Below are positions 2,118 through 25,865 of a stretch of 51,782 nucleotides of DNA, in pieces. Each line of letters begins with the position of its first letter. The first letter of the stretch is position 1. The notes beneath the pieces were generated by a model, which was given only the letters and a program-made list of their open reading frames with translations, searched no databases and was not told the origin of the DNA. This stretch comes from Dehalococcoidia bacterium (GTDB taxonomy: Bacteria; Chloroflexota; Dehalococcoidia; Lucifugimonadales; Australimonadaceae): positions 1 to 51,782 of the forward strand of contig CAUZHS010000004.1 in assembly GCA_963579845.1 (NCBI GenBank), written 5' to 3'. The position numbers and the translations under genes were made by a program.

Positions 2118-2579
2118 TTAGCCTTGGAGCTTTTCGAGCTCTCCGAGAATAACGGTGGCATCGGGGAGGGTGCCCGGCTCGTAGATCTCCTTCCAGCGGA
2201 TCGTGCCTTCTTTGTCGATGATGAACACCGAACGCCGTCCAACGCCGGAATCCTCGTTGTAAATGCCGTAGCTCCGGAGGGTGTCCTTGGGATGAAAGTC
2301 GGAGAGCAGGGGATGGGAAACACCGCCCAAGCCAGTGGCGAAGGCCCGGAGTGACGGTGAGCTGTCTGCGCTTAGGCCCAGAACCTGGGCCCCCTTCTCC
2401 TCGTATTGCCGGGTTGCCCGGCTAAATGAGGAGGTTTGGTTCGCTCAGCCGCCGGTGAAGGCGGAGGGAAAAACGTGAAGTACCACCCACTTCTCTCCCT
2501 TGAATTGGCTCAAGCTGATTTCTTCTCGATTGTGGTCCATTAGTTTGAAATCGGGTGCAGATTGGCCTATGTCAACCAT
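2118..2579 (-). CDS. Selenocysteine-containing peroxiredoxin (AhpC/TSA, AhpE-like), 153 aa with U45
   Basis: MVDIGQSAPDFKL...VLHVFPSAFTGG-TGA(2445-2447)-ANQ... continues in frame into the track ORF 2118..2330 (LLSDF, RSVFIIDKEG); TGA falls at the C of PxxxTxxC. Confidence 0.9.
2397..2433 (-). promoter_or_regulatory. Candidate bacterial SECIS hairpin
   Basis: CTCCTC-attta-GCCGGG-caa-CCCGGC-aatac-GAGGAG starting 11 nt after the UGA. Confidence 0.65.
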
Positions 2580-2658
2580 AATAATCCTTTGCGGGGGCGA
2601 GGTTATTCAAGAGCATATGCCACAGCAGGGGTTACGTAAAGAGAAGGCTTGGTGTCGT

Positions 2659-4131
2659 TTAGGAGTGGCGCCAGCGGAGGTTAGGCTGGCGCGCGGCCTT
2701 GGCTTCGTCGAGACGCGCCACCGGCGTGCTGTGGGGTGCGCTCTGGACTAGTTCCGGTTCGTGGGCCGCTTCATCGTTGATACGCTGGAGGGCGTTGATG
2801 AAGGCGTCCAGAGTCTCTTTCGATTCGGTCTCCGTGGGTTCAATCATCAGCGCCTCTGGCACCACCAGGGGAAAGTACATGGTTGGCGCATGAAACCCGA
2901 AGTCCAACAGGCGCTTTGCGATGTCCAAGGCGCGGATGCCCGGATGCTCTCGAAGGGTTGAGAAGATGACTTCGTGCATGCAGATCCGGTCGTATGGAAG
3001 CGCAAAGAGGTGCTGGAGCTTGACCCGTAGGTAGTTGGCGTTCAGGTTGGCGTTGGCGCTGATATCACGCATGCCCTGGGCGCCGAGAAGGGTGATGTAG
3101 GTGAAGGCCCTGACGAGCATCCCGAAGCTGCCGTAAAAGCCACCGATGCGTCCGATGCTTTCACTTGCCCTAGCTAGTTGGTAATCGCCGTCGCTGGTCA
3201 TGCTCACCATAGGGTCAGGCAGGTAGGGCGCCAGCGTTTCATTGGCGCAGACAGGCCCCGCACCCGGACCGCCTCCTCCGTGGGGTGTGCTGAAGGTCTT
3301 GTGCAAGTTGAGATGCACCACGTCGAAGCCAAGCTTGCCCAGTTTCACTCTGCCCAGGAGCGCGTTCATATTCGCTCCGTCACCGTACACCAGCCCGCCC
3401 GCCTCATGGACGATGCGGCACATCTCCACGACGTTGGTATCGAATAGGCCCAGGGTTGTGGGCAGCGTGAACATTATGCCCGCTAAGTCGGCGGTTGCCT
3501 CGCGGCGCAGCACGTCCAAATCAGTGTTGCCGTGCTCGTCGGAAGGGATGGATACCACGTGGTAGCCTCCCATGGCGGCGGAGGCGGGGTTGGTGCCATG
3601 GGCCGTATCGGGAACCAGCATCTTCGTCCGGTGTCCCTGTTTCTTGGATTGGTGGAAGCCCCGGATCATCAGGATGCCGGTCAGCTCTCCGTGAGCTCCG
3701 GCCAGGGGTGCGAGGCTGGCGCTATCCATGCCGGTGATCTCGTTTAGGTAGCCCTGAAGCCGGTACATCAGCTCCAGCGCTCCCTGAATTTGGCTGGTGC
3801 TCTGACGGGGATGGAGCTGGGCGAAGCCAGGGAGCGCCGCCGTTTGCTCGTTCAGCCGGGGATTGTACTTCATGCTGCAGCTTCCCAGCGGGTAGAAATT
3901 GGTATCTATCGAGAAGTTGAGCTGGCTCAGGTTGGAGAAGTAGCGGACAACCTCGCCTTCTGTGACCTCTGGTAGCTCCAAGTCGTCCCTGAGCAGCTCC
4001 TCCGGTGGCATCGCCTGTTCGGGAACATCGGATGAGGGGAGCGAGACGCCGGTTCGGCCGGGAACGCTCCGATCCATCAGCAGGCGGCGCTGGTACTCCT
4101 GGTCGCTAACGGAGAGGGTTGGAGTCCGCAT
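2659..4131 (-). CDS. gcvPB: Glycine dehydrogenase (decarboxylating) subunit 2
   Basis: YPLGSCSMKYNP, AHGTNPASA, HLNLHKTFSTPHGGGGPG (PLP lysine), IEPTETE. Confidence 0.96.
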   Translation of the reverse strand: MRTPTLSVSDQEYQRRLLMDRSVPGRTGVSLPSSDVPEQAMPPEELLRDDLELPEVTEGEVVRYFSNLSQLNFSIDTNFYPLGSCSMKYNPRLNEQTAALPGFAQLHPRQSTSQIQGALELMYRLQGYLNEITGMDSASLAPLAGAHGELTGILMIRGFHQSKKQGHRTKMLVPDTAHGTNPASAAMGGYHVVSIPSDEHGNTDLDVLRREATADLAGIMFTLPTTLGLFDTNVVEMCRIVHEAGGLVYGDGANMNALLGRVKLGKLGFDVVHLNLHKTFSTPHGGGGPGAGPVCANETLAPYLPDPMVSMTSDGDYQLARASESIGRIGGFYGSFGMLVRAFTYITLLGAQGMRDISANANLNANYLRVKLQHLFALPYDRICMHEVIFSTLREHPGIRALDIAKRLLDFGFHAPTMYFPLVVPEALMIEPTETESKETLDAFINALQRINDEAAHEPELVQSAPHSTPVARLDEAKAARQPNLRWRHS

Positions 4132-4133
4132 GG

Positions 4134-5456
4134 CTAGGCCACCTCTCGGAGCGCCGTTACTAGCGCATCGATCTCTTGGCGGCTGTTGAGCTCCGTCACG
4201 CAGAGCAGAAGGCCGTTGGGCACGAGGTCACTGATGTCCAGTCCGCTGATAATGCCCCTTGCCCCAAGCGCTCGGCTTATCTCTTCGGGCGGCCTGGGGC
4301 AACTGACGACGAACTCCTGGAAGAAGATTCCCTGCAAGGGTAGGCCGTAGCCGGAGAGGTGGCCAATTTCCGCGGCAGCGTAGTGGGCCTTCTGGTAACA
4401 GAGCTCGGCGACGTGGCGCAGTCCATGCTTGCCCATGCAGGCGGCGTAGATGGTGGCCATGAGCCCGATGAGGGCGGTACTGGTGCAGATGTTGGAGGTG
4501 GCGCGCTCGCGCCGGATGTGTTGCTCGCGGGTTTGGAGGGTCAACACGTAGCCGGTTCGGCCATCGGAGTCGGAGGTCTTGCCTACGATGCGTCCGGGCA
4601 CTTGGCGTAGGTATTCTTGCTTACAGGCGAACAGGCCTACGTAAGGCCCGCCAAAGCTGGGCGGAATGCCCAGGGCCTGGCCCTCGGCGGTGGCGATGTC
4701 TACCCCGGAGGCGCCCGGAGACGTAAAGAGGGCCATTGCCACCGGATCCACCGATGCGCAGAGCAGTGCGCCCTGTCCGTGGGCGGTCTGAGCCAGGGTA
4801 TCGAGATGTTCCATGTAGCCGTAGAAGTTGGGGTGCTGGACTAATACGCACGCCGTTCCGGGCTGAAGTTCTCGCACGTCCGGCTCTACGGTGTATATTT
4901 CGATACCCTGGGCGGCGGTGTAGGTCTGGACGACTTCGGCGTAGTTGGGCGCCACGGTAGTGAGGATAGCCACGCGTTGGCGCTGGGTTACCCGGCATGC
5001 CATGAGCGCGGCCTCTGCCATGCTGGTGGCGCCGTCGTACATACCAGCGTTGGCTACCTCCATACCCAGGAGTTGGGCCGACATGGTCTGGAACTCATAG
5101 GCAGCTTGTAGCGTACCTTGGGCTACCTCAGCTTGATAGGGCGTGTAGGAGGTCAGAAACTCTCCCCGGCTGGCCAGTGCGTTCACCACGGCTGGAGAGA
5201 AGTGGCGGTAAACTCCCGCGCCCAGAAAGGAGGCGTGCCGGCCTAGGTGAAGATTTTTGTCCGCAAGACGCTCCATTTCCTGCTGCAACTCCATTTCCGA
5301 GAGGGGAGGCGGCAGGCGGAGAACCGGGTCGCGGAATGCTTCAGGAATATCGGTGAAGAGCTCGTCCGTCGATGTTATACCTACCGCTTGGAGCATGGCC
5401 GTGCGGTCTTCTTCGGTATTGGGGATGTACGGAGAACTAAAGGTTTGCTGTGCCAT
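4134..5456 (-). CDS. gcvPA: Glycine dehydrogenase (decarboxylating) subunit 1
   Basis: FLGAGVY, YTPYQAEVAQG, LTLQTREQHIRRERATSNICT; start set at MAQQTF (5456) to avoid overlap with gcvH. Confidence 0.95.
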   Translation of the reverse strand: MAQQTFSSPYIPNTEEDRTAMLQAVGITSTDELFTDIPEAFRDPVLRLPPPLSEMELQQEMERLADKNLHLGRHASFLGAGVYRHFSPAVVNALASRGEFLTSYTPYQAEVAQGTLQAAYEFQTMSAQLLGMEVANAGMYDGATSMAEAALMACRVTQRQRVAILTTVAPNYAEVVQTYTAAQGIEIYTVEPDVRELQPGTACVLVQHPNFYGYMEHLDTLAQTAHGQGALLCASVDPVAMALFTSPGASGVDIATAEGQALGIPPSFGGPYVGLFACKQEYLRQVPGRIVGKTSDSDGRTGYVLTLQTREQHIRRERATSNICTSTALIGLMATIYAACMGKHGLRHVAELCYQKAHYAAAEIGHLSGYGLPLQGIFFQEFVVSCPRPPEEISRALGARGIISGLDISDLVPNGLLLCVTELNSRQEIDALVTALREVA

Positions 5457-5530
5457 ATTCACCACGATGCGCTTAAAGCGCGTTGGATCGATTCCCGGTC
5501 CAGATTTAGGGGCAGGAACGAGTCTTAGGT

Positions 5531-5908
5531 CTAGGTGGAGGCGTCGTATTGAGAGGCGTCCAACAGCGAGTCGAGCTCCGTTGCGTCGGCCAACTTCACG
5601 CGGAGGAGCCATCCTTTGTCGTAGGGGTCGGTGTTCAACAGTTCAGGCTCGCCGCCCACCGCCTCATTGATTTCCACTACCTCGCCGGTCACGGGAGAGA
5701 AGAGATCTGATACCGCCTTGACCGACTCCACCTCGCCCATCTGTTTGTACTGCTCTATCGTGGCCCCTAGCTTCGGCAGCTCCACGTAGACCACGTCGCC
5801 CAACTGGTCTTGGGCAAAATGGCTGATGCCCACCCGGGCTGTGCCGTCAGGCTGGAGTAGCACCCATTCGTGTTCTTTGGAATATTTGCGGTCGTTCGGT
5901 GTTTCCAT
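5531..5908 (-). CDS. gcvH: Glycine cleavage system H protein
   Basis: YSKEHEW, GISHFAQDQLGDVVYV, VESVKAVSD lipoyl lysine, NTDPY..GW. Confidence 0.97.
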   Translation of the reverse strand: METPNDRKYSKEHEWVLLQPDGTARVGISHFAQDQLGDVVYVELPKLGATIEQYKQMGEVESVKAVSDLFSPVTGEVVEINEAVGGEPELLNTDPYDKGWLLRVKLADATELDSLLDASQYDAST

Positions 5909-5910
5909 GG

Positions 5911-7014
5911 TTACCTCGGCCGTGCGTAGAAGGGCAGGGGAACGGTGACCACATTGGTCAGCTTTCCGCGGATGTCCACGCGCAGGCTCGTGCCTGGGGA
6001 AGCGAGCCGCGACGGAACATAGCCGAGGCCAATATTCCTGTCAAGCGTTGGGGAGTAGCCTCCGCTGGTCACCCCTCCCACGGCCTTTCCATCGGCCAGC
6101 AGCGTGGCGTGGGGTCGGGGAATCGGTCCTCTCCCCACTGTCTCGAATCCTGTTAACCGCCGCTCCGTCCCATGCTCTCGTGCTTGACGGATGGGCCCCG
6201 CGCCGCAGAACTCCCGCTCCGTCTTCACGAAGCGCTCTAGCCCTGCTTCGATGGGGCCGGTGGTGAGATCGATGTCGGAGCCGTGAAGGGGGAGGCCCGC
6301 CTCCAGCCGCAGGGTGTCCCGTGCGCCTAGGCCACAGGGTATCGCACCGTGCTCCACGAGCAGATCCCATACGCGCTGGGCAGCTTCTGCCAGCGGCATG
6401 ACCTCGACACCGTCCTCGCCGGTATAGCCGGTGCGGGCCATGAATGCGGATTGACCGTTGTCCGTGAAGGCCGCCTGTGTGGACCGGAATAGCCGCACCG
6501 TCGACGGGTCGAAGTCGGTCAGGTGGGTGATGATGCTCAAGGCCTGGGGCCCCTGGAGGGCGAGCATTGCCGTTTTAGCGGTATCATCCCGAATCAGAGC
6601 ATCGGGGAACCGCTCGGCCCGCCAGCGCTCCAGCCATGCGAGGACCGCGGCTGTATTCCCGGCGTTGGCCACCAGCAGATAGCGTTCCTCCCCCAGCCGG
6701 TAGACGATGCCATCGTCGATGATCCCCCCCTCTTCGTTGCAGAGGAGCCCGTAGCGGGCGCGGTTGACGGGCATCTCAGGGCCAATGTCGGCGGTATGCA
6801 CCCAGTCAACGAGATGTCGAGCCCCGGGCCCCTCGATGACGATGCGGCCCATGTGGGAGACGTCGAAGATTCCTGCGCCGGTGCGAACGGTCCGGACCTC
6901 GGCAAGGATACCCTGATACTGAATGGGCATCTCCCATCCGGCGAAGGGCACGAGGCGGGCGTGTATCCCGACGTGACTCTCGTAAAGAGGCGTATGGCGG
7001 AGTGCGGTGGTCAA
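5911..7014 (-). CDS. gcvT: Glycine cleavage system aminomethyltransferase T
   Basis: TPLY..H, FAGWEMPIQY, FDVSHMG, RTGYTGEDG, GLGARDTLRLEAG; likely TTG start at 7014 with GAGGT upstream. Confidence 0.95.
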   Translation of the reverse strand: MTTALRHTPLYESHVGIHARLVPFAGWEMPIQYQGILAEVRTVRTGAGIFDVSHMGRIVIEGPGARHLVDWVHTADIGPEMPVNRARYGLLCNEEGGIIDDGIVYRLGEERYLLVANAGNTAAVLAWLERWRAERFPDALIRDDTAKTAMLALQGPQALSIITHLTDFDPSTVRLFRSTQAAFTDNGQSAFMARTGYTGEDGVEVMPLAEAAQRVWDLLVEHGAIPCGLGARDTLRLEAGLPLHGSDIDLTTGPIEAGLERFVKTEREFCGAGPIRQAREHGTERRLTGFETVGRGPIPRPHATLLADGKAVGGVTSGGYSPTLDRNIGLGYVPSRLASPGTSLRVDIRGKLTNVVTVPLPFYARPR

Positions 7015-7052
7015 AGGAGGCACCTCATGTGATGACTTATGGGGGATGTGTG

Positions 7053-9338: not shown

Positions 9339-9360
9339 CTGTACGCTCCCTGTACGCTCC
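9339..9360 (-). repeat. 11-bp tandem duplication of the metE ribosome-binding region
   Basis: ctgtacgctcc x2 (GGAGCGTACAG x2 on minus strand) directly before the ATG. Confidence 0.8.
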
Positions 9361-9439
9361 TGATGATGTAGGCTCTTTATGATACATGCCAGACGGTGCG
9401 CTTCCTACCCTGGTGGTTTGTGATGCTTCAGCCCAGCAC

Positions 9440-10038
9440 GGTTAATCCCTCCGGCAGCGGGCCGCGCTCATGTTTCGGCCATGGCGAGGACGGAGCCTTT
9501 TCCCGACCGTACGGCAAGCTCCACGTCCAGGTGCAGCGTTGCGGCCAGGGTGGAGTGAGGCGGATGGATGTTAGTGCCCGCTGCCTGGGCGATGCCCAAG
9601 TAGGGTATGACTGGTCATCTCAAAGACGTGAGTGCGCAGATAAGCGCTGAGCCGTATAGCACCCCCTGGGTCGGCACGAGGTAGTTGTCCGAGAAAGTCC
9701 CCACCAGTTTCGACACGCGGTCGGCTGTTGCAGCGATTGCCGCTGCGCCTAGGGTTCGGGGCAGTCGTTGGGCGCGAATCCCGCGGTGGCAATCGCTGCA
9801 TGGCCGGTGGGGTTGCTGAGTGCCGCTAGGTAGTATTCGGTGGAGCCTTCGATGTCCACCTGCGTGGCCGGGCTGGCGGTAAACCGCTCCACCGTCCACA
9901 GGGCCCCGCTTGCGTGGGCTCTCAGTTCCCGGATGGTCCGCACGCGTAGGCCAGGGCCCTCCCACTGTTCAACTCCGAGCTGGCCCCCGCCTCCACCAAG
10001 AACGGGGACGCCTCTGCGAAAGCCTCTCGAGTGTCATG
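9440..10038 (-). pseudogene. Probable frameshifted gene remnant, C-terminal part resembling PaaI/hot-dog thioesterases
   Basis: Protein-like fragments spread over several frames (e.g. GVLYGSALICAL and TLHLDVELAVRSGKGSVLAMAE), loosely resembling PaaI G.lhGG and T.el.v.f.rp motifs. Confidence 0.3.
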
Positions 10039-10150
10039 AAGCATGGATGGTTCCTTGGGATAGAGCGATAAAGGGACGGGATTGGATTTTATCCTGGCCC
10101 CCATCTGCTGCAAGGCCAAACATGTAGATGCTAAACTGTTAGGTAGTATC

Positions 10151-10675
10151 ATGCCTAGCACACCACGTAATTACTGGATGGTTGTGGTCAGCCCGGAGTA
10201 CTTCGAAGCCTCTCGCAGCCGCAACTTCGATGTTCTCGGCATGGGCAAGGCGCAAAAGAAGCGAGTTCAGCGAATGGAAGTGGGTGACCGCGTCCTCTTC
10301 TACGTTAGCGTCGAGCGCCTGTTTACCGCCACCGCCACGATAAACTCGACCTATTTCGAGGACCACGAGCCCGTTTGGCCCGCCTCCAATCTGCATGAAG
10401 ACTACCCTTGGCGAGTGAAGCTTAGGCCGAGTGTCGTGCCCAAGGAGAACGAGTACATCGATGCCCGGCTAATTGCGCCACGGATGCAATATGTACGCAA
10501 GTGGACTCCGGAGGACTGGCCCATGGCATTCTTTGATCCGTTACATCTGGTCCCTAAGCTGGACTTCGCGATGCTGGAGGACGAGATGCGGAAGCATCGC
10601 CGTAACCCAGCGATGAAGGTGGAGCTCGACCCGGATAGCAATTGTGCCCTCGATAGACTTCCTGCCGTTCCGTGA
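10151..10675 (+). CDS. EVE domain protein
   Basis: NYWMVVVSPE, RMEVGDRVLFYVS, YFEDHEPVW, YPWRVKL pattern; ATG at 10151. Confidence 0.8.
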   Translation: MPSTPRNYWMVVVSPEYFEASRSRNFDVLGMGKAQKKRVQRMEVGDRVLFYVSVERLFTATATINSTYFEDHEPVWPASNLHEDYPWRVKLRPSVVPKENEYIDARLIAPRMQYVRKWTPEDWPMAFFDPLHLVPKLDFAMLEDEMRKHRRNPAMKVELDPDSNCALDRLPAVP

Positions 10676-10686
10676 GGTTTTCTTAA

Positions 10687-11460: not shown

Positions 11461-11487
11461 CAACAAAGCTGGTGAAGGGGCCGAAGC

Positions 11488-13760: not shown

Positions 13761-13791
13761 GGTCGCTCCTCGGGTGCGCTCGTTAGGGGTG

Positions 13792-15596: not shown

Positions 15597-15926
15597 ATGG
15601 CAAAACCATTCACGGTAACTGATGCAGACTTTTCAAACCAGGTGCTGGAGGCTGACAAGCCGGTGCTGGTTGACTTTTGGGCCGACTGGTGCGGGCCCTG
15701 TAAGATGATCGCGCCGATTGTGGAAGAGCTAGCGGAAGAGTATGACGGTCGGGTTGGCTTCGCCAAGCTGGACGTGGATGCGAACCCCACGATTGCCATG
15801 AACTACGGCATTCGCAGCATTCCTACCTTGCTGGTGATGAAGGGTGGAGAGGTGGCCGAGCAGATCGTTGGGGCGGTACCCAAGGCGGTGCTCAAGAAGA
15901 AACTGGACAAGGTGTTGGGCGTCTAA
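15597..15926 (+). CDS. trxA: Thioredoxin
   Basis: [28 protein letters not shown]. Confidence 0.96.
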
Positions 15927-16009
15927 AGTCCCTGGCCTTTGTGGGGTTGAGGGAATCTGAATAAAATAGCGGCGTCCCGGTGGTATCGGGGCGCCGTTTC
16001 GTTGGATGT

Positions 16010-16107
16010 GGGAGTGGATGGATTCCGGTGGGTCTCGCGGTCTTCAAAACCGTTGCGGGGGCGGCTTCCCGTTCCCGGGTGGGTTCGACTCCCACGCACT
16101 CCCGCCA
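16010..16107 (+). tRNA. selC: tRNA-Sec (anticodon TCA)
   Basis: Anticodon loop CTTCAAA (TCA 16044-16046), 6-bp D stem with CGGT loop, 9-bp variable stem, GTGGG-TTCGACT-CCCAC T arm, G discriminator, encoded CCA. Confidence 0.95.
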
Positions 16108-16167
16108 GTCTATAGACTGGTAAACAGCCTCCTCGGTTAATCACCACCTGTTGACCATTATTCTCCG

Positions 16168-16190
16168 GGGACTCCATTAGGGACTCCATT
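16168..16190 (+). repeat. Direct repeat GGGACTCCATT x2 (12-bp period), integrase arm-site-like
   Basis: 16168-16178 and 16180-16190, 60 nt after selC. Confidence 0.55.
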
Positions 16191-16351
16191 TGCCCTGGAC
16201 CCTTCATGATTCCACCGTTTATTACACGTCCCCCGGGAAGCTATTGATGATGATTGCGTCTGCCCCGAGTGCGAACTGCCGCGCCCTGGCTGCAGTAAAA
16301 GTAGTAGTGGTATGGCCTTCAGCTTCATCTCATCCCCGCCATTGACCACGG

Positions 16352-16729
16352 CTAACCCTGCTCCGATTTCACAAATGTCATCGACAGTGAATTCACGCAA
16401 TGTCGAGTGTTTGTTTCTGTAAAGCGCTCGCCAAGAAATACATGACCTAGGTGACCCCCGCAATTGGCACAAGCGAGCTCTGTCCGGTGACCATCAGGAT
16501 CCGGCAACCGGGTTACTGCCTCTGGCACCTCTTTATCGAAGGATGGCCAACCACAATGGGCATTGAACTTGTCAATGGACCTATACAGCTCAGCATCGCA
16601 TCGCCGACAGACATATGTGCCGATCTCGAAAAAACCGTCGTACTCACCTGAGAATGGGGGTTCGGTCCCCTTATTTTCAATTATGAGCTGCTCTTTTGGA
16701 GAAAGCGTATTGTAGTTTGAGTTATCCAT
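16352..16729 (-). CDS. msrB: Peptide methionine-R-sulfoxide reductase (Cys form)
   Basis: GTEPPFSGEY, CRRC, CGWPSF, CANCGGHLGHVF, RHCVNS. Confidence 0.95.
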   Translation of the reverse strand: MDNSNYNTLSPKEQLIIENKGTEPPFSGEYDGFFEIGTYVCRRCDAELYRSIDKFNAHCGWPSFDKEVPEAVTRLPDPDGHRTELACANCGGHLGHVFLGERFTETNTRHCVNSLSMTFVKSEQG

Positions 16730-16903
16730 GTCTAGGTTTCCTTCCTGAAGGATGTATCCCCGTTGTACCTAATCCCCATGAGACTCCTAGGCGTTAGGTT
16801 CTGTTACTGATCGAATATGGCCAATTGTCAACGGCTCGGTATAGTCAACTGTTATTAACCGAATGTTCTGTTCCATACATAGCTGTGCCTAAGGAGTAGT
16901 TCT

Positions 16904-17365
16904 TTAAAGTCGGGATATTAGGGTGTCAATCTGATCCACGCTGTTCATATCCGGCTCCCAAGCTGCAATCCTCCCAGCTTCGTCGATCACCACAGCCGGG
17001 CGGCGTCCTTCAACGTTATTAGCAACATATCGTTCGGTAGATGCATCGGACATACCATAGGCGATTCCTACACTTCGATCTGGGTCTAAGAGCACAACAA
17101 AAGGTAGTTGTTCCTTTTCGATCCATGCCCGGGCGCTTGCTGCATCCTTATCGTTCATCCCATAGACCACTAGATTCTTGGCAGCCATTTTATCTGCATG
17201 CTCACGGTACCCGAGAGCCATGCGGGTTCAGTTGCCGCCACCGGAGCTGGTATAGAAATACAGCAGCACCTTCTTTCCCCGTAGTTCAAGAAGAGAAATG
17301 GTGTTTTCGTAGCAATCGCTAAGGGTAAAATCAGGAGCTAGATCCCCTATTTCCAGATTAGCCAT
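16904..17365 (-). CDS. Selenocysteine-containing peroxiredoxin-like protein (BCP/AhpC fold), 153 aa with U46
   Basis: MANLEIGDLAPDFTL...RGKKVLLYFYTSSGGGN-TGA(17228-17230)-TRMALG... in frame with track ORF 16904..17221 (LPFVVLLDPD, RPAVVIDEAGRI); AAGGAGG RBS. Confidence 0.87.
17196..17223 (-). promoter_or_regulatory. Candidate bacterial SECIS hairpin
   Basis: GCATG-g-CTC-t-CGG-gta-CCG-t-GAG-CATGC; G-initiated loop 18 nt after the UGA. Confidence 0.65.
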
Positions 17366-17455
17366 ACGACCTCCTTATGGTTATGTTGGGATCGGTTGCA
17401 ATCAGGCAGCACGTCCGGTACTAGTCAAAATGAATTAACCATGCTGCCGGTTACC

Positions 17456-17499
17456 TGGTGGAGCTGAGGGGGTTCGAACCCCTGACCCGCTGCTTGCAT
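17456..17499 (-). other. 3' half of tRNA-Ala(TGC), att-site remnant
   Basis: TGCAAGCAGCGGGTCAGGGGTTCGAACCCCCTCAGCTCCACCA with T arm and ACCA end, but no 5' half. Confidence 0.8.
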
Positions 17500-17525
17500 A
17501 GCACAGAATCGACTTTCGTTTAGCT

Positions 17526-18368
17526 TCACATCTCTCGGCTTGTATATCTACGCCAGGCAAATAGTGCAAACAACGGACTCACGACTAAAGCACTGATGAA
17601 CGACTTATATCTGAAGTGCGGATCCAGCTCAGAGGACTGTCCGAAATAAGTAATTGTTCCGGTCCTTATTTCTGACTCGGTCACGCTAAGGAAGGCTTGG
17701 GTATCGGACAGCGCAGCTGGCCACCAAAGCAGCATTCTCGCTACGTAAGAAACTGTTTCCCATTGCGCCGGTGGCGTCTGAATGAGTCCACGCATAAGTA
17801 ACTCAACGGTGATAACAGTGCCTCCTATTAGCGGTATCCCTATAAGTACTGCCAACGTCAATAAAACAGAAGCGACTGAGCCTCTGAAAATCGATGAGGT
17901 AAACAGCATAAGTGCTACATAAAAAAGATTGGAAACCAGGGACAGGAACGTTCCCCACAAGAACCAATTAAGGCTTAGGGTGTCAGATGAATCAAAGATT
18001 AGCAGACCGACGATAAGAGTTAGAAAAAATCCCAGAAAGAAAAAAATTGTAGATAATGGGAAATAGACGAGTACCTTCGTGAGAAGAATTTGTTTCATTG
18101 AGAATCTAGTTCTGAGGAATATCGATGAATCCTTATTACCATCAAAAGCTAGGGAAGAGACAACAATACCAACAAACAGTAGTGTCCCCACAATCGAGGA
18201 TATCAGGTATATCTCAAGCGCCTCGGCCAAGGAAAAATGAACATTAGCTCGCTCAATGAATATACCTATAACAAGCGACAATACGCTTGCTAATATGAAT
18301 GATCCTAATAAGGACCAGCCCCGCCAACTACGGAACAGGTGAATGAGTTCCATTGTCCACAAATTCAT
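17526..18368 (-). CDS. ABC-2 type exporter permease
   Basis: About 6 hydrophobic segments; 4-nt overlap with the upstream ATPase. Confidence 0.8.
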   Translation of the reverse strand: MNLWTMELIHLFRSWRGWSLLGSFILASVLSLVIGIFIERANVHFSLAEALEIYLISSIVGTLLFVGIVVSSLAFDGNKDSSIFLRTRFSMKQILLTKVLVYFPLSTIFFFLGFFLTLIVGLLIFDSSDTLSLNWFLWGTFLSLVSNLFYVALMLFTSSIFRGSVASVLLTLAVLIGIPLIGGTVITVELLMRGLIQTPPAQWETVSYVARMLLWWPAALSDTQAFLSVTESEIRTGTITYFGQSSELDPHFRYKSFISALVVSPLFALFAWRRYTSREM

Positions 18369-19069
18369 TTGGTACTTCTTCCAGGTTGGAGGAGCTCCAG
18401 AACCGCATCTTCAAACGACTGTTTTTTAGATTTCCTAATGCCGCTCACAGTACCCTCATACAGAGTCTTTCCGTGGTCTACCACGGTGACCGACTCACAG
18501 ACAGCTTCAACGTCACTCAAGAGATGGGTTGAAAACAGCACAGTAGATTTGCTTCTTAATCGCAATATGACATCCAATACTTCCCTTCGTCCAATCGGAT
18601 CAAGTGCCGAACAGGGCTCATCTAAGAGGAGCAGTTGAGGTTCTCCAATCAATGTAGTAGCCAACCCAAGACGCTGTTTCATACCCCTGGAAAAACCTCC
18701 AACCCGACGATCGATGGAGTCCCCCAATCCAACTAGCTCAATTACCTGCGTAACTGATTCTTCACTAACTTCTTTTCGGAAGGGATGACGAGCTAAATCC
18801 ACCATTTCCCGAGCAGTTAGTAGCGGGAAAAAATCAGGGGTGTCTGGCATAAGCATAACTTTGTTAGTTGGGACACCGAATGTGATTTCTCCAGAAGTTT
18901 TCCTTCTGAGTCCTGAGATTATTGAAAGAATTGTAGTTTTACCTGAACCATTCGGGCCAACAAGCCCATGTATGATTCCTTCGTTAAGCGTTAAATTAAG
19001 CCCAGCTAAAGCGGTTAACTTGCCGTACCGCTTCGTTAAATCCGAGATTTCGACTACTGCTGTTCCCAT
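18365..19069 (-). CDS. ABC transporter ATP-binding protein
   Basis: GPNGSGKTT, FSRGMKQR, LLLLDEP, STH. Confidence 0.93.
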   Translation of the reverse strand: MGTAVVEISDLTKRYGKLTALAGLNLTLNEGIIHGLVGPNGSGKTTILSIISGLRRKTSGEITFGVPTNKVMLMPDTPDFFPLLTAREMVDLARHPFRKEVSEESVTQVIELVGLGDSIDRRVGGFSRGMKQRLGLATTLIGEPQLLLLDEPCSALDPIGRREVLDVILRLRSKSTVLFSTHLLSDVEAVCESVTVVDHGKTLYEGTVSGIRKSKKQSFEDAVLELLQPGRSTK

Positions 19070-19206
19070 AAAAGTACCTCCAGGTACGCCGCCGCAAGGA
19101 CATGTTACGATTAACTTCTTTGAGGTCGTGGTTCTTCTCCGGTGTCCCGCCTCGTTACAGTCCAGCTACCTTACGTGGAAGAGATATGAGCTTAAGCTTC
19201 ATGAGT

Positions 19207-19230
19207 GAACTCCTGACCCCCTGCTTGCAA
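19207..19230 (-). other. Second, shorter tRNA-Ala-like fragment
   Basis: TTGCAAGCAGGGGGTCAGGAGTTC; 21/23 identical to 17476-17498. Confidence 0.6.
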
Positions 19231-19298
19231 TGTCCCGTTCGTATTGAGGATTCTAGATAGTTACGGGTAGCGTGGCGAATCAGGTAATGGAGTAACCG

Positions 19299-20624
19299 AT
19301 GCAGAGCTTAATGCGAGTCGATAGGAATCTTGTGGTTCTGCTCGGACTGCTGGTGCTGTCCCCATTTGTGATTGCAGCCTGTAGTTTAGCACCGGGGGCA
19401 CCTACACCCGATCTCCTGGCGACTGTGGATGCACGCGCTGCAGAAGAATTACAGTTGCAGGCGGAGGTCGACGCTGCGGTCGCTAAAGCCTTACAGGCTG
19501 CGGTAACACCGACGCCTGTGCCCACCGCCACCGCCACCGCCACCGCCACCGCCACCGCCACCGCCACCGCCACCGCCACCGCAACACCTAGCATCAACTA
19601 TCTGGAACGCGGATGGCAATATTCCGAAACTGAACAGTGGGAGAAAGCAATCGAGGCCTGCACCAAAGCTATGGAATCCCAACTAAGCGATCCAGAATCG
19701 TATGTGTGCCGAGCTATGGCGTATTCGGAACTATATAAATACCAAGATGCTCTAGATGACATGAATATTGCTATAAACCTTCCCCGCATCATCCCCAATA
19801 CACCTATAAGTTCGAATGATCCCGAGTCGGTTGAAATCATCTACCGTAAAGGTATGTTCACCGTCATTAGCTGGCTGTCGTTTGAATTAGGCTTACTTGA
19901 TGATGCAATCCTCAACATTGATCACTATATGGATGTTGAAAAAAATCTAACACCGGTTTCCGAAGTCGCAAGATATTCTGAGACGCAACAATCCATTCAG
20001 TGGCTAATAGAGGGGAATGGGTATTTAGCTTCCGGGCTATATGCAAAAGCCATCGAAAGTTTCACCGCATTTATTGATTGTTCCTGGAATGGACACCCAA
20101 CGGAGTACATTTTGGACCGGATATTCCCTAAAGGGTGTGGTGAGGGCCGCTATCCCCACAATATGTTTCTCAATGTGACGGAAGCCGACCCACAGGGATC
20201 ACACCCGGTTGGTTATTTCCTAAGGGGAATCGCCTTAGGAAGGTCAGGGGAATTTGAGACAGCCATCGCTGATTTCAAACAAGTCATCGAATTGGATCCA
20301 AACAATTCTCTAGGATACTCACGGAAAGCCTACGAACAAAAAGGGATCGCTTACGGTCGTCTAGGCGAGACCGAACGCGCGATCCGGGACTTTGATGAAG
20401 CAATCCATCTCGACCCGGAACACGCGGGTACCTATGCCAACAGGGGGTTCGCGTACTACAAGCTTGCCCAGTATGAGCGAGCTATCCAAGACTATGATGA
20501 GGCCATACGCCTTAACCGGGAGTTCGCCTACGCCTACTATCACAGAGGGGTGGCGTACCAGGCCATAGGGCTCTCTGAGGCAGCAGCCCACGACTTCGCA
20601 AAGGCCGAGGCGCTTCGTAATTGA
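19299..20624 (+). CDS. TPR-repeat lipoprotein with Thr/Ala/Pro linker
   Basis: Signal peptide with IAAC lipobox; TA-repeat linker; multiple TPRs (AIADFKQVIELDP, AIRDFDEAIHLDP, YANRGFAY). Confidence 0.85.
   Translation: MQSLMRVDRNLVVLLGLLVLSPFVIAACSLAPGAPTPDLLATVDARAAEELQLQAEVDAAVAKALQAAVTPTPVPTATATATATATATATATATATPSINYLERGWQYSETEQWEKAIEACTKAMESQLSDPESYVCRAMAYSELYKYQDALDDMNIAINLPRIIPNTPISSNDPESVEIIYRKGMFTVISWLSFELGLLDDAILNIDHYMDVEKNLTPVSEVARYSETQQSIQWLIEGNGYLASGLYAKAIESFTAFIDCSWNGHPTEYILDRIFPKGCGEGRYPHNMFLNVTEADPQGSHPVGYFLRGIALGRSGEFETAIADFKQVIELDPNNSLGYSRKAYEQKGIAYGRLGETERAIRDFDEAIHLDPEHAGTYANRGFAYYKLAQYERAIQDYDEAIRLNREFAYAYYHRGVAYQAIGLSEAAAHDFAKAEALRN
19524..19583 (+). repeat. Hexamer microsatellite (ACCGCC)x9 + ACCGCA
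   Basis: Perfect in-frame tandem repeat encoding (TA)10. Confidence 0.95.
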
Positions 20625-20881
20625 GCCCGCAGGCCAGCAAGGTCACGGTCTCCGACTTCAAGGCATCGCCCAAGTAGCCATCCGCTGTGAGGGTTTGGGT
20701 CTGTGGGCGGATGCTGTCGGATGCCTGGGGCTATAAAGGACCTTTGATTCCTTCCACTATGGCTGCAATTATGCTTCCTTTGGCTTTTTGCTGGTTGATC
20801 AGCAAATAGCCGAATACGCTGTCATACAAGGTGCCTGGGTCTAGAGGCTGTGAGAGCGACTTTCCTTGAGAGCCACTTCTT

Positions 20882-21562
20882 TTACCAGAGACACCCTACT
20901 CGAGACTCCCTGGCCGTCTCCTCAAGCGCCACAAGCTCTTGAAGATGCTGGCCATCGCGTGTCCAGGCAAAGGCTAGCCCTTTTCTGATCAACTCGGCAT
21001 CGATACTGTCGCCGTTCTCGCGATAGAGATAGGCCAGCCGGCGATCGAAATTGTCAATGAGTCGCGGTCCATCCTCGGTCCGCACTCGATCTCCGGCCAG
21101 CCGCCTTAATTCGGCAGTTGCTTCTTCCGAGCAACGTTCTCCTGCTTCGGTAGCATTTATACCGAATAGGCGTACACGCAGACCACCGGAAATAACAAGC
21201 GTATCGCCGTCGATAACACGAGTGACCGCTATTGATGGGCAATCAGGACAGCTGAGGCCACGGGCCAGGAGATTAGGATCCTCGTTGAAGTAGCCGAAAA
21301 GCAAAGACCCGAACGGCACCACTGCCAACGCAGCCAGCACCTTCAAGGCCAAGCCCACGCGATGAGCCGCGCTCCCGAGCGATTCGGCTCGGATGAGCCA
21401 GTTCGCTGCAGCATACCAGGCCCCAAGCAATACCACCGATCCGAGCCCGAACTCAATTAGCAATGGGGTGTCATAGGCCAATCGCAAGTAGCAAATGAAG
21501 AGAGCAGCAATCCCTACAGAGGCGATGACTGCTAAGAGGAACCGAGTCTGGAGCCAGAACAT
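20882..21562 (-). CDS. Membrane-anchored thermonuclease (SNase) family protein
   Basis: N-terminal TM segments; VTRVIDGDT, VRLFGINATE, D.F.RRLAYLY, LIRKGLA, ARESRVGCLW; start uncertain (21562 or 21658). Confidence 0.85.
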   Translation of the reverse strand: MFWLQTRFLLAVIASVGIAALFICYLRLAYDTPLLIEFGLGSVVLLGAWYAAANWLIRAESLGSAAHRVGLALKVLAALAVVPFGSLLFGYFNEDPNLLARGLSCPDCPSIAVTRVIDGDTLVISGGLRVRLFGINATEAGERCSEEATAELRRLAGDRVRTEDGPRLIDNFDRRLAYLYRENGDSIDAELIRKGLAFAWTRDGQHLQELVALEETARESRVGCLW

Positions 21563-22037
21563 GGAGGGAGTGTAGCAGAGCCCAAAATTGTAACGTTGAT
21601 CTAGCAACCTAGTCGGAAGATCGCTACTTTGTTTGTTAAGGGCACCATCTGACGACACTCCGTGCTGATCACCCTCGGAGGAGGCGCTGCGACTACGGTA
21701 GTTCGCTGGCCGGTGGGCCAGTTTGGATGACAGTTACTAGAGATAAGGCCAGTGTGAGGTAGGGATGGGAGATGAGCCCCCCGTCGCGGCTAATCCCCCA
21801 CGGGACTCCTAGCCGGTACAGAGCGCTTGTCTCTGACGGCATCACGAATAGACATTTCTACTCAATGAATACTTTACTAAAGGCAACAGCGAATATTCCG
21901 GCTTCACTGTTTACGGATGGTTGAGTACTGGATCGCCTTTTTAAAGGGGTGTTTTCTGCGCGGCGGAGAGGTAACGCCGTCGGCCTAGCTGTAGCATCTC
22001 CGCAGGACGATGCCAGCCACTATATTCCTCCGCAAGT

Positions 22038-22535
22038 TCAGTGTGCTCCAGATTTTTTTGCGGGAGCAGCTTTTATTGTATCAAGTTTGGCCTGTGCTTC
22101 GGCCTGAGTTAACTTGCCGGATGTGACCATGGAATCGAGTTTAGATTCAATAAGTAGAAACGGAAGGCGCTTGCCATTGTGACCGTGTTTGGTGCGATGC
22201 TTCTTGGGCGGCGAGACCGAGATTGCAGCGAGTTTCGCATCCGCTTCCGCTCGTGTGAGTTCTCCGGTCGCGACAAGGCCATCTAACTTCACCCCGGCAG
22301 CATCCGTTTTCTTCTCGAGTACTGTTTCACGTAGGTCGCGCTTGGCTTGCGTTATAGCTTCGGCAACGACCTCGTGATCTAGGCCAAGGATATCGGCCAC
22401 ACGAGTAGCAAGGGCATTGGGCCCATCCTTACTGTCGGTCGCGTGTGCGGAAATCGTAGAAATTAAAGCAAGGCCGGCGACCAGTACAACGAGCAGAATT
22501 CCCCACTGCTTCTTCATTGGTTCGTTACCTCCCAT
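22038..22535 (-). CDS. Secreted hypothetical protein with repeated GxLTxxEA motif
   Basis: Signal peptide; LDGLVATGELTRAEADAKL and LDSMVTSGKLTQAEAQAKL internal repeat. Confidence 0.7.
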   Translation of the reverse strand: MGGNEPMKKQWGILLVVLVAGLALISTISAHATDSKDGPNALATRVADILGLDHEVVAEAITQAKRDLRETVLEKKTDAAGVKLDGLVATGELTRAEADAKLAAISVSPPKKHRTKHGHNGKRLPFLLIESKLDSMVTSGKLTQAEAQAKLDTIKAAPAKKSGAH

Positions 22536-23023
22536 AACCGATTTTCGAAAATTAGTGTCGCCTTATTGTAACTCTTGCTAGCATACGAACTTCGTCAAGT
22601 CTCCCGGTCGATACGAATTCATGATAGCACCTGCCTGCCAATCAGCCTTACTGAACTGATCCCATTAGAGCGATACCAATAAGACTTTCTAGGGAGTGCT
22701 TCATGAAGGCTTAGGTTCTGGGTCTGGAGCCAACGTTGGTCGTCAGGGCTGAATCCCAGTGCAGGCTGCTGAGGTACTAGCCGTATTTGCCTGCGTTCCA
22801 TCGCTTCCTCCGGTTATTAACCTGCGAATTGGTTCGCATCCACTCAGGGGTAAATTCGCTGAATGCTTGATTCGAAAGGTGTTACCCTTTGGGTTTTGAT
22901 TTCGTTGTAGCAGGGTTTTCCCGTCTTCAACATATCTCGATGCGACAGGGCATAAAAGGTAAGTTGGGAAGCGGTCAAGTGGCTCGCGTTAAGAAAATAA
23001 GGATGGCGAGGTAACTTCCGGTT

Positions 23024-24940
23024 ATGGCTTTCATCAGTATGCAAGGAATATCCCTTTCCTTCACTGGCATCCCACTTTTTGATGGGGTTAACTTAACTAT
23101 TGAGCGAGGAGAGAAGGTTGGCCTGGTAGGCAGGAACGGGTCGGGGAAATCAACGCTGCTGCGGCTGATAGAGGGAAGCACCAAACCAGACTCCGGAGCT
23201 GTAGCCCTCCAAAAGGGCATAATCACCGCCTATCTTTCACAAGAGGTGCCGCAAGAGTTACCCGGAACCGTGTTTGATGTAGTGGCCAGCGGGAGCAGAG
23301 AATACGTTGAACTGGTCAGACGGAATCCACGCGAAGGCGCCAGGTTGCTTGAGGAAGGCACGCCGCCTCTCCACGAAGGATCGGGCCATATCCACCATAA
23401 CTTAGAGACGGAAGATCTGTTGGATAAGAGGGCACAGGTCAACAAAAGCCTTTCGCAACTTGGGTTGGATGCTGGTTGCGCTTTCAGTTCTCTATCCGCC
23501 GGCCTAAAACGGCGAGTGCTCTTGAAGAGGGCACTCGTTGGTGAGCCGGATATCCTCCTCCTTGATGAACCAACTAATCATATGGATATTGATTCAATTA
23601 AGGAATTGGAACAGCTGATAGTTCGGTTTACGGGTGCCTTGATCTTCGTTACCCACGACCGGATGTTCTTGCAGAGAATCGCTACCCGGGTAGTGGAAAT
23701 TGATCGAGGCCGGCTGTTTGATCAGACCTGCGACTATGAGACATTCCTGGAACGGCGAAGCGCCGACCGCGAGGCAGAAGAGACGAGGAATGCTCTGTTC
23801 GATAAGAAGCTGCAACAGGAAGAGCACTGGATTCGGGGAGGGATCAAGGCGAGGCGGACGCGCAACGAGGGCCGCGTGAGGGAACTGGGGAAAATGCGCG
23901 AGGTGCGCAGGTCCAGACGGGACCAGCCCGGGAAAGTGAAGATGGAAGCGCAGGAGGCCGAGCGTTCCGGAACCTTGGTGGCCAAGGCTGACAATATCGG
24001 TTTCAACTATGGGGATACGCAGGTAATCTCAAAATTCTCCACCGCAATTCTGAAGGGCGATAGGATTGGAATTCTAGGCCCCAACGGCAGCGGCAAGACC
24101 ACTCTCTTGCGCCTTCTTCTTGGCATGCTCAGTCCCGTTACTGGAACAATCCGCCTCGGCGCTAACTTGAAAATCAGCTACTCTGACCAACTCCTTGACC
24201 AGTTGGACGAAACCAAGACGTCCATAGAAAACGTTGGCGACGGCAGTGACACAGTTACCGTTGACGGGAAAAACCGCCACATCCTTGGCTATCTTCAAGA
24301 TTTTCTGTTTTCTCCAGATCAAGCTCGCTCCCTTGTTTCTGTTCTTTCCGGGGGAGAGCGCAAGCGCCTAATGCTCGCCCGTCTCTTCACGCTGCCCTCC
24401 AATCTCCTGGTGCTGGATGAACCCACGAACGACCTAGATATCGAGACCCTCGACCTCCTTGAAGACCTTTTGATGAACTACACAGGAACGATTCTCCTCG
24501 TCAGTCACGACAGGACCTTCATTAACAACGTCGTGACGAGCACCATCGTTTTTGAAGGCGGCTCCGTCGTGAAGGAGTATGTGGGCGGCTATGATGACTG
24601 GTTGCGTCAGCGCCCTGAGGTAGCAAAACCGAATAGGGCATTTGCGAGCAGTCAAAGCGCCCCACCGGCTCAGGCACCCAAGACGAGATTGAAATTAAAG
24701 TCCAGCCAGAAAAAGGAACTGGATGCACTTCCCCAGACTATCGAGTGCCTCGAAAGGGAACAGCAGCAGTTGGCCCAGACCACGGGAGATCCTGGACTCT
24801 ATAAAAAAGGCAGGGCTGTTATTGTGGCCACGAACGATAGGCTAGAACAACTGAAAAGGCTTTTGGCTGAGGCCTACACACGGTGGGAACAACTGGAACA
24901 ACTTCGGGTAGATGGTGAAAACAGCAGGCTTGCAAAATAG
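23024..24940 (+). CDS. uup: ABC-F family ATPase (Uup-like)
   Basis: Two ABC cassettes (GRNGSGKST, GPNGSGKTT), WIRGGIKARRTRNEGRVR linker, C-terminal coiled coil ...YTRWEQLE. Confidence 0.88.
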   Translation: MAFISMQGISLSFTGIPLFDGVNLTIERGEKVGLVGRNGSGKSTLLRLIEGSTKPDSGAVALQKGIITAYLSQEVPQELPGTVFDVVASGSREYVELVRRNPREGARLLEEGTPPLHEGSGHIHHNLETEDLLDKRAQVNKSLSQLGLDAGCAFSSLSAGLKRRVLLKRALVGEPDILLLDEPTNHMDIDSIKELEQLIVRFTGALIFVTHDRMFLQRIATRVVEIDRGRLFDQTCDYETFLERRSADREAEETRNALFDKKLQQEEHWIRGGIKARRTRNEGRVRELGKMREVRRSRRDQPGKVKMEAQEAERSGTLVAKADNIGFNYGDTQVISKFSTAILKGDRIGILGPNGSGKTTLLRLLLGMLSPVTGTIRLGANLKISYSDQLLDQLDETKTSIENVGDGSDTVTVDGKNRHILGYLQDFLFSPDQARSLVSVLSGGERKRLMLARLFTLPSNLLVLDEPTNDLDIETLDLLEDLLMNYTGTILLVSHDRTFINNVVTSTIVFEGGSVVKEYVGGYDDWLRQRPEVAKPNRAFASSQSAPPAQAPKTRLKLKSSQKKELDALPQTIECLEREQQQLAQTTGDPGLYKKGRAVIVATNDRLEQLKRLLAEAYTRWEQLEQLRVDGENSRLAK

Positions 24941-25049
24941 AGGGTGCTAACCAGCGTAAAAAACACTAAGGCATACCCCTTGCTCATCACCACCACCTGC
25001 GATTAACAGCTATCACACGTAGACCACGGGTAGGGATCAGGGGCCCAAG

Positions 25050-25154
25050 GTACTCGGCCACTCTTAAATCTCAATCACTGCTGAGTACTACCAGGACATG
25101 GAGCGGGATCAGAAGCGTAAGGCAATGAATTCGCTGGCGGGACTGGGCACCTAA
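25050..25154 (+). pseudogene. C-terminal remnant of a tyrosine integrase
   Basis: VLGHS*ISITAEYYQDMERDQKRKAMNSLAGLGT*, matching the LGH..I..T..Y catalytic tail but with an internal TAA. Confidence 0.65.
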
Positions 25155-25162
25155 GAGGGTGC

Positions 25163-25235
25163 CGAACCGTTGACCTGCGGTTTGCAAATCACCGGAGGGG
25201 ATGTCACCGGTGTTGCTTTCAAATTGGCTTTCAAA
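25163..25235. other. Degenerate tRNA-like fragment plus GCTTTCAAA x2 direct repeat (att/arm-site remnant)
   Basis: Reverse complement GATTTGCAAACCGCAGGTCAACGGTTCG at 25163-25190; GCTTTCAAA at 25215-25223 and 25227-25235. Confidence 0.5.
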
Positions 25236-25376
25236 CTAAAGTCGGTTGGGGTAGGGCGGCCTATATTTAGACAACGGAGGGTGCCCTTGCGATTTTAGGG
25301 AACTGATACGGACGCGATCCAACCAGCACACGGGAACAGTGACCGACGGAACCACCGATAAAGGTGTGACTAATAC

Positions 25377-25865
25377 ATGGGCGACTTCATCAACCACAAC
25401 TCAGCACTGTTCATCGCCGTGGGCGTTTTCGGCATCATGGGCATGTTCGCATGGGAGCGCCGCCGCAGCGCCAAGGCCCTAGTTGTCATTGCGGGCATCA
25501 CGTTGGTACTCGTGGGCGGTTATTGGACGTCAAGAGAGGGGCCGTCCAACGTCGCGACCATCGCCGAGATGGATGGCATCCTGAGCGCTGGAACTCCGGT
25601 GGTGATGGAGTTCTACTCAGATACCTGAATCCTCTGCCTAAGCAGCAAGCGTTCGGTGGACGCCATGGAGGTTGATCTAGATGGCAAGGCCGTCATCATT
25701 CGCCTGAACTTGGGTGAGGATGTCGGGAAGCGGGCCGCACGCAGGCTGGGCGTGAGCATTACTCCGACGTTCATTGTCTTCGCAGCAGATGGCCGCGAGC
25801 ATTACCGAGAGAGCGGCCCACCCGACATAGAACGCCTGAAGCGCGAGGCTCTCTCCCTCGGGTAA
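25377..25865 (+). CDS. Membrane-anchored selenocysteine thioredoxin-like protein (UxxC), 162 aa with U84
   Basis: Two N-terminal TM helices, then PVVMEFYSDT-TGA(25626-25628)-ILC...ITPTFIVF; joins track ORFs 25377..25628 and 25656..25865 in one frame. Confidence 0.9.
25631..25671 (+). promoter_or_regulatory. Candidate bacterial SECIS hairpin
   Basis: Upper stem GCGTTC-ggt-GGACGC (25649-25663), lower stem CCTCT/GGAGG. Confidence 0.55.

Follow-up and report, generated by a model that had tools for sequence, protein, structure and literature searches.

Three redox genes with predicted selenocysteine codons, and the gene for tRNA-Sec, in a marine Dehalococcoidia genome

The window analyzed here is a 51,782-nucleotide stretch of DNA from a marine Dehalococcoidia bacterium of the SAR202 type (contig CAUZHS010000004.1, positions 1 to 51,782, of assembly GCA_963579845.1, whose 60 contigs total 1.35 Mb at a rated completeness of 96.5%), and it contains the gene for the selenocysteine (Sec) tRNA together with three genes for redox proteins, each interrupted by a single in-frame TGA. 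We consider it highly probable that these are intact genes whose in-frame UGA encodes Sec by the standard bacterial route. The codons, the alignment columns that they occupy, the conservation of those codons and columns, and the genes selB, selC and selD were observed directly. The three genes belong to a known type of recoding in a lineage recorded as selenoprotein-rich, and one of them has an unusual active loop. They are numbered below by their order along the window.

2118..2579, minus strand: gene 1, predicted AhpE-like one-Sec peroxiredoxin gene (153 aa, U45, TGA 2445-2447)
16010..16107, plus strand: tRNA-Sec gene (selC), anticodon TCA (UCA in RNA), found by ARAGORN and Rfam
16904..17365, minus strand: gene 2, predicted BCP/PrxQ-fold selenoprotein gene (U46, TGA 17228-17230, loop FYTSSGGGNU)
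25377..25865, plus strand: gene 3, predicted thioredoxin-fold UxxC selenoprotein gene (U84, TGA 25626-25628, SDTUILC)

A preliminary description of this DNA, made from its letters, had noticed a selC with a TCA anticodon and one TGA at the redox Cys position of three genes that stay open on both sides, and both observations held up: the two programs agree on the tRNA, and each read-through open reading frame (ORF) holds exactly one TGA, with a Pfam domain running across it. In genes 1 and 2 this is the AhpC-TSA domain (E 4e-33 and 6e-25, respectively), and in gene 3 it is the Thioredoxin domain (E 1e-4, slightly under the cut-off); the ribosome-binding sites ahead of genes 1 and 2 are clear, and that of gene 3 is weaker. 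Taken by itself, an open frame beyond a TGA carries little weight, as 22 of 236 TGA-ended genes have at least 78 open codons past the stop, and the case therefore rests on domain continuity and conservation. All three genes have a conserved in-frame UGA on the catalytic Cys column: U45 of gene 1 is aligned to Cys45 of Mycobacterium tuberculosis AhpE, U46 of gene 2 to the peroxidatic Cys of Sulfolobus PrxQ, and the UxxC of gene 3 opens the active-site helix of the thioredoxin fold. Orthologues keep either TGA or Cys at these columns. Column 45 is TGA in 22/22 full-length homologous loci of gene 1, including Burkholderiales and Pseudomonadales records, and across the genomes compared (60 relatives, or 61 with the present assembly) a gene 1 homologue is present in 51 of 61, with a TGA inside 52 of 53 matches. 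Column 46 is TGA in all seven close orthologues of gene 2 (matches of at least 54% identity), and the 21 full-length database homologues have Cys (16), Trp (4) or Arg (1) there. For gene 3, the 19 orthologous loci covering the column divide into 10 with TGA and 9 with Cys, the latter forming CxxC.

The TGAs could also be nonsense mutations or sequencing errors, or TGA could be read as Trp or Gly throughout the genome. The genome does contain one genuine nonsense case, a C-terminal remnant of the glyoxalase/VOC family abutting the start of selB (C2:82610-82780, minus strand), rejected as a pseudogene that has lost its N-terminus and whose TGA at a Cys column is private to this genome (0/14 relatives' matches); in addition, W appears at the columns studied here in some database entries. 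The W entries, however, are best explained by gene calling with a table in which TGA is Trp, and the same-column TGA recurs in different genera and families, and for gene 1 in other phyla as well, alternating with Cys codons. Moreover, TGA terminates 298 of the 1224 called genes and is thus an ordinary stop in this genome, so that there is no genome-wide reassignment and recoding is limited to selected UGAs. Two of the three TGAs are reproduced by independent runs, with TGA 2445 being crossed unchanged by contigs from two DNA and two RNA runs, and TGA 17228 being retained in a diverged allele that has 18 other differences. Error or reassignment is therefore already largely refuted, and we regard it as barely credible. 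The RNA-run contigs cover 2113-2587 and 2112-2649, that is the whole gene 1 ORF, with zero differences, which is not proof of transcription. The sequencing runs containing window DNA are seawater or marine metagenomes, and contigs of 267 kb bearing these genes exist.

A UGA followed by a 3' hairpin recruits the SelB-Sec-tRNA complex (PMC9312934), and a candidate Sec insertion sequence (SECIS) was located behind each of the three codons.

2397..2434, minus strand: predicted SECIS of gene 1, an apical GC-rich stem with a lower stem, loop about 28 nt past the UGA
17196..17223, minus strand: predicted SECIS of gene 2, loop GUA about 18 nt past the UGA
25649..25663, plus strand: weak predicted SECIS of gene 3, G-containing loop 27 nt past the UGA

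When 60 nt from each UGA were folded and compared with shuffles, the adjacent hairpin that the preliminary description had claimed for every gene was strong for gene 1 (-24.5 kcal/mol, z -3.16, with 0 of 200 shuffles equally good) and modest for gene 2 (z -1.1), where it is nevertheless found at -9 to -14 kcal/mol in 7/7 close orthologues; for gene 3 it is weak, as detailed below. Using a scoring rule that was devised after the sites had been seen, a G-containing loop 16-32 nt downstream of the codon, the ten Sec sites of the genome outscore both a sample of 280 Cys codons (p 5e-5) and a set of 236 TGA stops (p 7e-6). Within families, TGA sites are followed by stronger hairpins than Cys sites, with medians of -8.2 versus -3.7 for gene 3 and -10.6 versus -6.3 for gene 2.

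The tRNA-Sec of the window matches Rfam RF01852 with 73.1 bits (cut-off 47) and has the features of a bacterial tRNA-Sec, namely the UCA anticodon, a length within 90-101 nt, a long variable arm and G73, with its CCA end encoded in the DNA. The D stem has 6 bp and a 4-nt loop, with pairing in 100% of cells and a compensatory change at one pair. In place of the canonical 13-bp (8/5) acceptor/T branch there are 12 pairs and a G-G mismatch, a branch kept in 14/14 same-family tRNA-Sec (the window and 13 relatives), and at least one mismatch among the 13 acceptor/T positions occurs in all 27 SAR202-type tRNA-Sec that were parsed out of 32 loci, a scope that includes L174-L212. The place of the mismatch varies by family, being G-G at the foot of the acceptor stem here and U-U in the T stem in most other families; the tRNA-Sec of one relative, G042, has both. 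A 12-bp acceptor branch (8/4 plus a bulge) has already been published for tRNA-Sec of Chloroflexi (PMC5389517); a mismatched branch is shared with them, and in the window's family the mismatch is the G-G at the acceptor-stem base. A tRNA-Sec match of at least 60 bits was obtained in 52 of the 60 relatives. The protein components found, both encoded on contigs other than the window's, are SelB, which has its C-terminal winged-helix domain (C2:82784-84628, 337.6 bits against a cut-off of 242), and SelD, which carries a UGA of its own in CAGUAAK (C18:10515-11639, plus strand, 380 bits against 125).

Several observations weigh against Sec in these three proteins. The gene 3 hairpin is no better than shuffles (z +0.5) and is not the minimum-energy fold, and its stem changes register among subgroups, which makes this predicted SECIS the least secure of the three; taken alone against the Cys-codon background, the three window hairpins reach p 0.03 under the post hoc scoring rule. 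Among the matches listed from sequencing runs, no contig bridges TGA 25626, so that reproduction in independent runs applies to the other two TGAs. All three proteins score below the curated NCBIfam cut-offs, and their Sec content and activity are predictions. Most seriously, the preliminary description had held that a genome lacking selA, selB and selD would refute it, and the absence of selA formally triggers that condition: while selB and selD were found, SelA was not found in the assembly by TIGR00474, PF03841, tblastn or filter-free HMMER with a profile from 21 relatives' SelA, nor was any selA fragment, nor SepSecS (PF05889); synteny could not place selA either, as gene order is shuffled.

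The distribution of SelA among the relatives points to a probable explanation for its absence. It is above the cut-off in 53 of 60 (32/32 with at most 40 contigs and 21/28 with at least 50), the seven without it all have at least 50 contigs, and the SelB wing is present in 57 of 60. The tRNAs for Asn, Pro(TGG), Val(TAC) and Leu(TAA), whose codons are used thousands of times, are likewise absent from the assembly. Because SelA is found in every relative with at most 40 contigs, and because essential tRNAs are absent here, the missing selA is probably an assembly gap. Were selA instead truly lost, the Sec codons would be present by ancestry and the selenoproteins would be recent untranslated relics, which would fit both the failure to find selA and a genome that is among its family's smallest (1.35 Mb compared with 1.2-3.3 Mb); in addition, the selA of relatives is often 8-32 kb from the gene 3 orthologue, and here there is none within 25 kb on either side. 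However, the nine selenoprotein genes of the genome and selB, selC and selD are all intact and free of a second lesion, the AhpE-like gene is spanned over its full length in contigs of two RNA runs, and both the restriction of selA absence to relatives with at least 50 contigs and the equally missing tRNAs argue against a loss, which we judge to be very unlikely. A further possibility is that Sec is inserted but that Sec-tRNA is made without SelA by an unrecognized enzyme, for which the lack of any SelA or SepSecS match, even with filters off and the relatives' profile, and the non-canonical branch of the tRNA-Sec could be adduced. Yet the same G-G branch is found in 13/13 same-family relatives, most of the family having an ordinary SelA, and the fragmentation pattern fits a gap, making a SelA-free route exceedingly unlikely. 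Decoding by the standard route, which the preliminary description had proposed, is well supported by domain continuity, column conservation and the machinery: the tRNA-Sec of the window, SelB and SelD from other contigs, and a probably unassembled SelA would decode the three UGAs, with SelB binding the hairpin that follows each UGA by 17-28 nt and delivering the Sec-tRNA.

Gene 1, which is situated downstream of gcvP, has the active site FPSAFTGGU and no Cys elsewhere. It displays the PxxxTxxU signature (P38-T42-U45) and the conserved Arg of the Sec-peroxiredoxin family (PF00578, TxxU; PMC1088965, PMC13188914 Table 1), with GRR over the NRG of AhpE, though within that family it is nearest to the 1-Cys AhpE subgroup and well under the PrxU model (70.6 against a cut-off of 270). 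Its best solved relative is M. tuberculosis AhpE (PDB 1XXU, E 2e-26), which is of equal length, has its single catalytic residue at position 45 and similarly has no resolving Cys, but which uses Cys where gene 1 would use Sec. The gene 1 product is thus predicted to be a one-Sec peroxidase in which the selenol would attack hydroperoxides, and the oxidized protein would be re-reduced by a thiol system, either TrxA or a small thiol. M. tuberculosis AhpE is reduced via mycothiol and mycoredoxin-1 (PMC8113037); an MshA-like gene in the present genome scored under its cut-off. The nearest homologues of gene 1 are in Chloroflexota, Dehalococcoidia or SAR202 records. An AhpE-like Sec gene at 52-55% identity, with the hairpin in the same position, also occurs in Burkholderiales, Proteobacteria and Pseudomonadales records (L045, L047, L049, L050, L061, L062), suggesting the possibility of horizontal transfer.

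The three genes had been called unrelated, but genes 1 and 2 are AhpC/TSA peroxiredoxin-fold paralogues that are 28% identical. The predicted structure of gene 2 (predicted local distance difference test score 92) is similar to BCP/PrxQ structures (PDB 3HJP, 3DRN, 2YWN; template modelling score 0.80-0.84), with U46 on the peroxidatic column and the later Arg retained (GRRP), whereas the signature PxxxT/SxxC(U) is replaced by TSSGGGNU, without the Pro and Thr, helix 2 has no resolving Cys, and the score on PRK09437 is 73 bits against a cut-off of 140. Throughout the subfamily, in Sec and Cys forms alike, the signature Thr is missing and the Pro is almost always missing, the loop being TSSGGGNU or TxPGGNNC. 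On the strength of this modelled fold and its sequence we describe the gene 2 product as a peroxiredoxin-fold redoxin and do not file it as BCP. Its substrate or kinetics would be changed, and it is most likely either a peroxidase of altered specificity or a thiol oxidoreductase. A separate Cys-to-Sec change is seen in two relatives whose canonical BCP orthologue holds a TGA (G014:C15:10308-10697, at the catalytic column, and G027:C9:2474-2860). An msrB gene adjoins both selC and gene 2 (window 16352-16729, minus strand) and is of the ordinary form with no in-frame TGA.

Gene 3 shares the UxxC in a thioredoxin fold, as well as CxxC orthologues, with the known thioredoxin and thiol:disulfide interchange selenoproteins (PF00085, PF13098; PMC13188914 Table 1), from which it differs in having two N-terminal hydrophobic, putatively membrane, segments, in lacking WCGPC, and in falling under every curated cut-off. 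It is not a TrxA proper, with 24 bits on TIGR01068 against 96.8. The hydrophobic segments flank a basic loop, on account of which the thioredoxin domain probably faces outward, and the gene 3 product may accordingly be described as a putative outward-facing membrane thiol-disulfide oxidoreductase.

Two further features of the window bear on the arrangement around selC.

15597..15926, plus strand: trxA, ordinary Cys thioredoxin (WCGPC), from the Pfam scan, immediately 5' of selC
16108..25376, no strand: variable region of lower GC content (51% compared with 59-60% in the flanks), beginning at the 3' end of selC

The trxA gene adjoins selC in 11/11 relatives' selC loci, and its product is a candidate electron donor; co-transcription of trxA and selC (window 15597-16107) is conceivable. 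The variable region contains msrB, the GGGNU gene (gene 2), a tRNA-Ala 3' remnant, and ABC, TPR and nuclease genes, with gene 3 at its edge. Window positions 17456-17503 are the 3' half of a tRNA-Ala(TGC) gene, 94% like the gene on contig C20, and about 95 nt behind selC (window 16104-16200) recur behind tRNA-Ser on contig C1 (97641-97760). Together, the tRNA-Ala remnant and the repeated post-tRNA stretch appear to be scars typical of integration at tRNA genes. A regulatory RNA considered for the depth peak at 17455-17487 was rejected, as the peak is the tRNA-Ala remnant, and a scan for promoters and terminators gave chance-level results. It might be proposed that selC belongs with the three genes to a selenium island that is selected and co-regulated, since of the nine selenoprotein genes three are no more than about 14 kb from selC (naive binomial p ~7e-4, computed post hoc), the AhpE-like gene is found behind gcvP and 11-29 kb from selC in 19/19 same-family genomes with both on one contig, and the G059 orthologues of genes 2 and 3 are adjacent. 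In the window, however, the genes are on different strands and 8-15 kb apart with unrelated genes between; in G004, G016 and G033 a distance of 240-600 kb separates the gene 3 orthologue from selC; AhpE-like genes are more than 140 kb away in six other-family genomes; and the neighbours of genes 2 and 3 vary among relatives. The apparent enrichment near selC dissolves in this comparison, and we find an island unlikely. Proximity to selC is instead part family-level gene order (the AhpE-like gene and trxA) and part variable region, not an operon, and to judge from the relatives' gene orders the three genes form no conserved selenium cluster. In G059, which belongs to another family, the GGGNU and membrane UxxC orthologues stand side by side on one strand, both with TGA (C2:27308-28304).

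One selenoprotein gene outside the window merits comparison with the unusual gene 2.

C23:18230-18883, plus strand (also L066:4231-4884): predicted MerB-like gene with two UGAs and a hairpin behind each

Its U90 and U155 fall on Cys96 and Cys159 of MerB, and its predicted structure matches the MerB fold (PDB 3F0O, Foldseek E 2e-10). The gene is present in 4 of 61 genomes, with two TGAs in every one. Across 18 metagenome loci, site 155 is always TGA and site 90 is Cys in 16, TGA in 1 (the same species) and uncovered in 1. The database matches number 79: in 56 the sequence breaks off immediately ahead of residue 155, another 18 run the full length and show W at the two sites, and Cys occurs at site 155 in none; the second hairpin has a synonymous compensatory change from C-G to A-U. 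A comparator is SaoL (NF040728; bioRxiv 10.1101/2022.07.06.499078), which also has Sec at the position equivalent to Cys159, but the C23 protein has a second Sec at the Cys96 position, Glu for Asp99, no CU motif, and 36 bits on NF040728 against 140; no SAO genes were seen near it. SaoL is the only MerB-type selenoprotein that we met in the literature, including the table of a 2026 review (PMC13188914). The neighbours of the C23 gene include EgtD-like, Prx6-like and iron ABC genes, named from sequence reading alone.

The preliminary description had called this selenoproteome hidden, but specialists already know of it: selenoprotein-rich Dehalococcoidia are in BSepDB (PMC13326102), the TxxU and UxxC families are long known, and 43 TxxU genes were already counted in Sargasso Sea data (PMC1088965). 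Less ordinary are the GGGNU protein without the peroxiredoxin Pro and Thr and the MerB-like gene with both catalytic Cys as UGA. It is possible, though we hold it doubtful, that these are two forms new to the catalogues consulted, a GGGNU enzyme acting beyond ordinary hydroperoxides and a double-Sec MerB-fold enzyme, with selenium at both metal-binding positions, cleaving organometal bonds such as that of methylmercury; if both were as read, SAR202 would be a selenium-dependent player in ocean mercury turnover. In either case the GGGNU subfamily and the double-Sec MerB-like protein offer concrete testable targets. The importance of the three window genes is mainly a matter of annotation, and here the expectation that standard gene callers split them proved right: public collections list their pieces as separate proteins (44 and 70 aa for gene 1, 45 aa for gene 2, 83 aa for gene 3), and of the 120 best database matches of gene 2, 99 are fragments some 105 residues long that begin three residues past the Sec. 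The AhpE-like peroxiredoxin, present throughout the family, stands in the records in pieces, so that part of the oxidative-stress kit escapes genome and metaproteome studies. Sec appears near-universal in this abundant marine lineage, with the machinery in roughly 90% of the 60 sampled relatives. SAR202 bacteria are aerobic. Their use of Sec adds to the evidence against the statement, in section 10 of the above review (PMC13188914), that aerobes seldom keep selenoproteins. A literature search on Sec in SAR202 returned nothing relevant, the class-level record being that in BSepDB.

In total, nine selenoprotein genes with ten well-supported UGAs were found in the 1.35 Mb (about 0.7% of genes), which bears out modestly the suggestion of a selenoprotein-rich organism: a table of such organisms descends to six genes (PMC1794560), whereas two Dehalococcoidia metagenome-assembled genomes, of the same class, are in the BSepDB top ten with 49 and 46 (PMC13326102 Table 2), far above the present genome. 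Actinomarina, with about five selenoproteins per genome (bioRxiv 10.64898/2026.04.03.716425), shares with it the marine small-genome pattern, a Sec-containing SelD and a selC next to a variable region. The count derives from a coding-potential screen and family scans, the family domain spanning the UGA in each of the nine genes; 16,174 TGA contexts were reduced to 235 and, after filters, to 64, about 25 of which were scanned against Pfam and NCBIfam, and an additional motif screen covered 52 candidates. The count of nine is a minimum, since the screen is blind to C-terminal Sec and to genes that miscalled ORFs overlap. Most candidates were rejected as true stops between neighbouring genes, for example that at window 30906 between a molybdoenzyme subunit and MoaD. 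One short read-through candidate with coding-like composition (C27:5042-5221, minus strand) had no family match, and for CMD, Rdx/SelW, UGSC, DUF427 and molybdopterin Fe4S4 there was no match or no TGA in the genome. The remaining predicted selenoprotein genes, all outside the window, are as follows.

C30:6112-6753, plus strand: DsbA-like DxxUP selenoprotein, family domain across the UGA
C7:17694-18422, plus strand: AhpF-N/PDO UxxC selenoprotein (TIGR02187, 182 against 185)
C37, TGA at 3841, plus strand: peroxiredoxin-like UxxC redoxin, family domain across the UGA
C27:242-550, plus strand: CC/Se-motif protein, TGA in 8/8 relatives' matches

In the CC/Se gene another TGA lies two codons ahead of the TAA, and this TGA may either end the protein or encode a further Sec.

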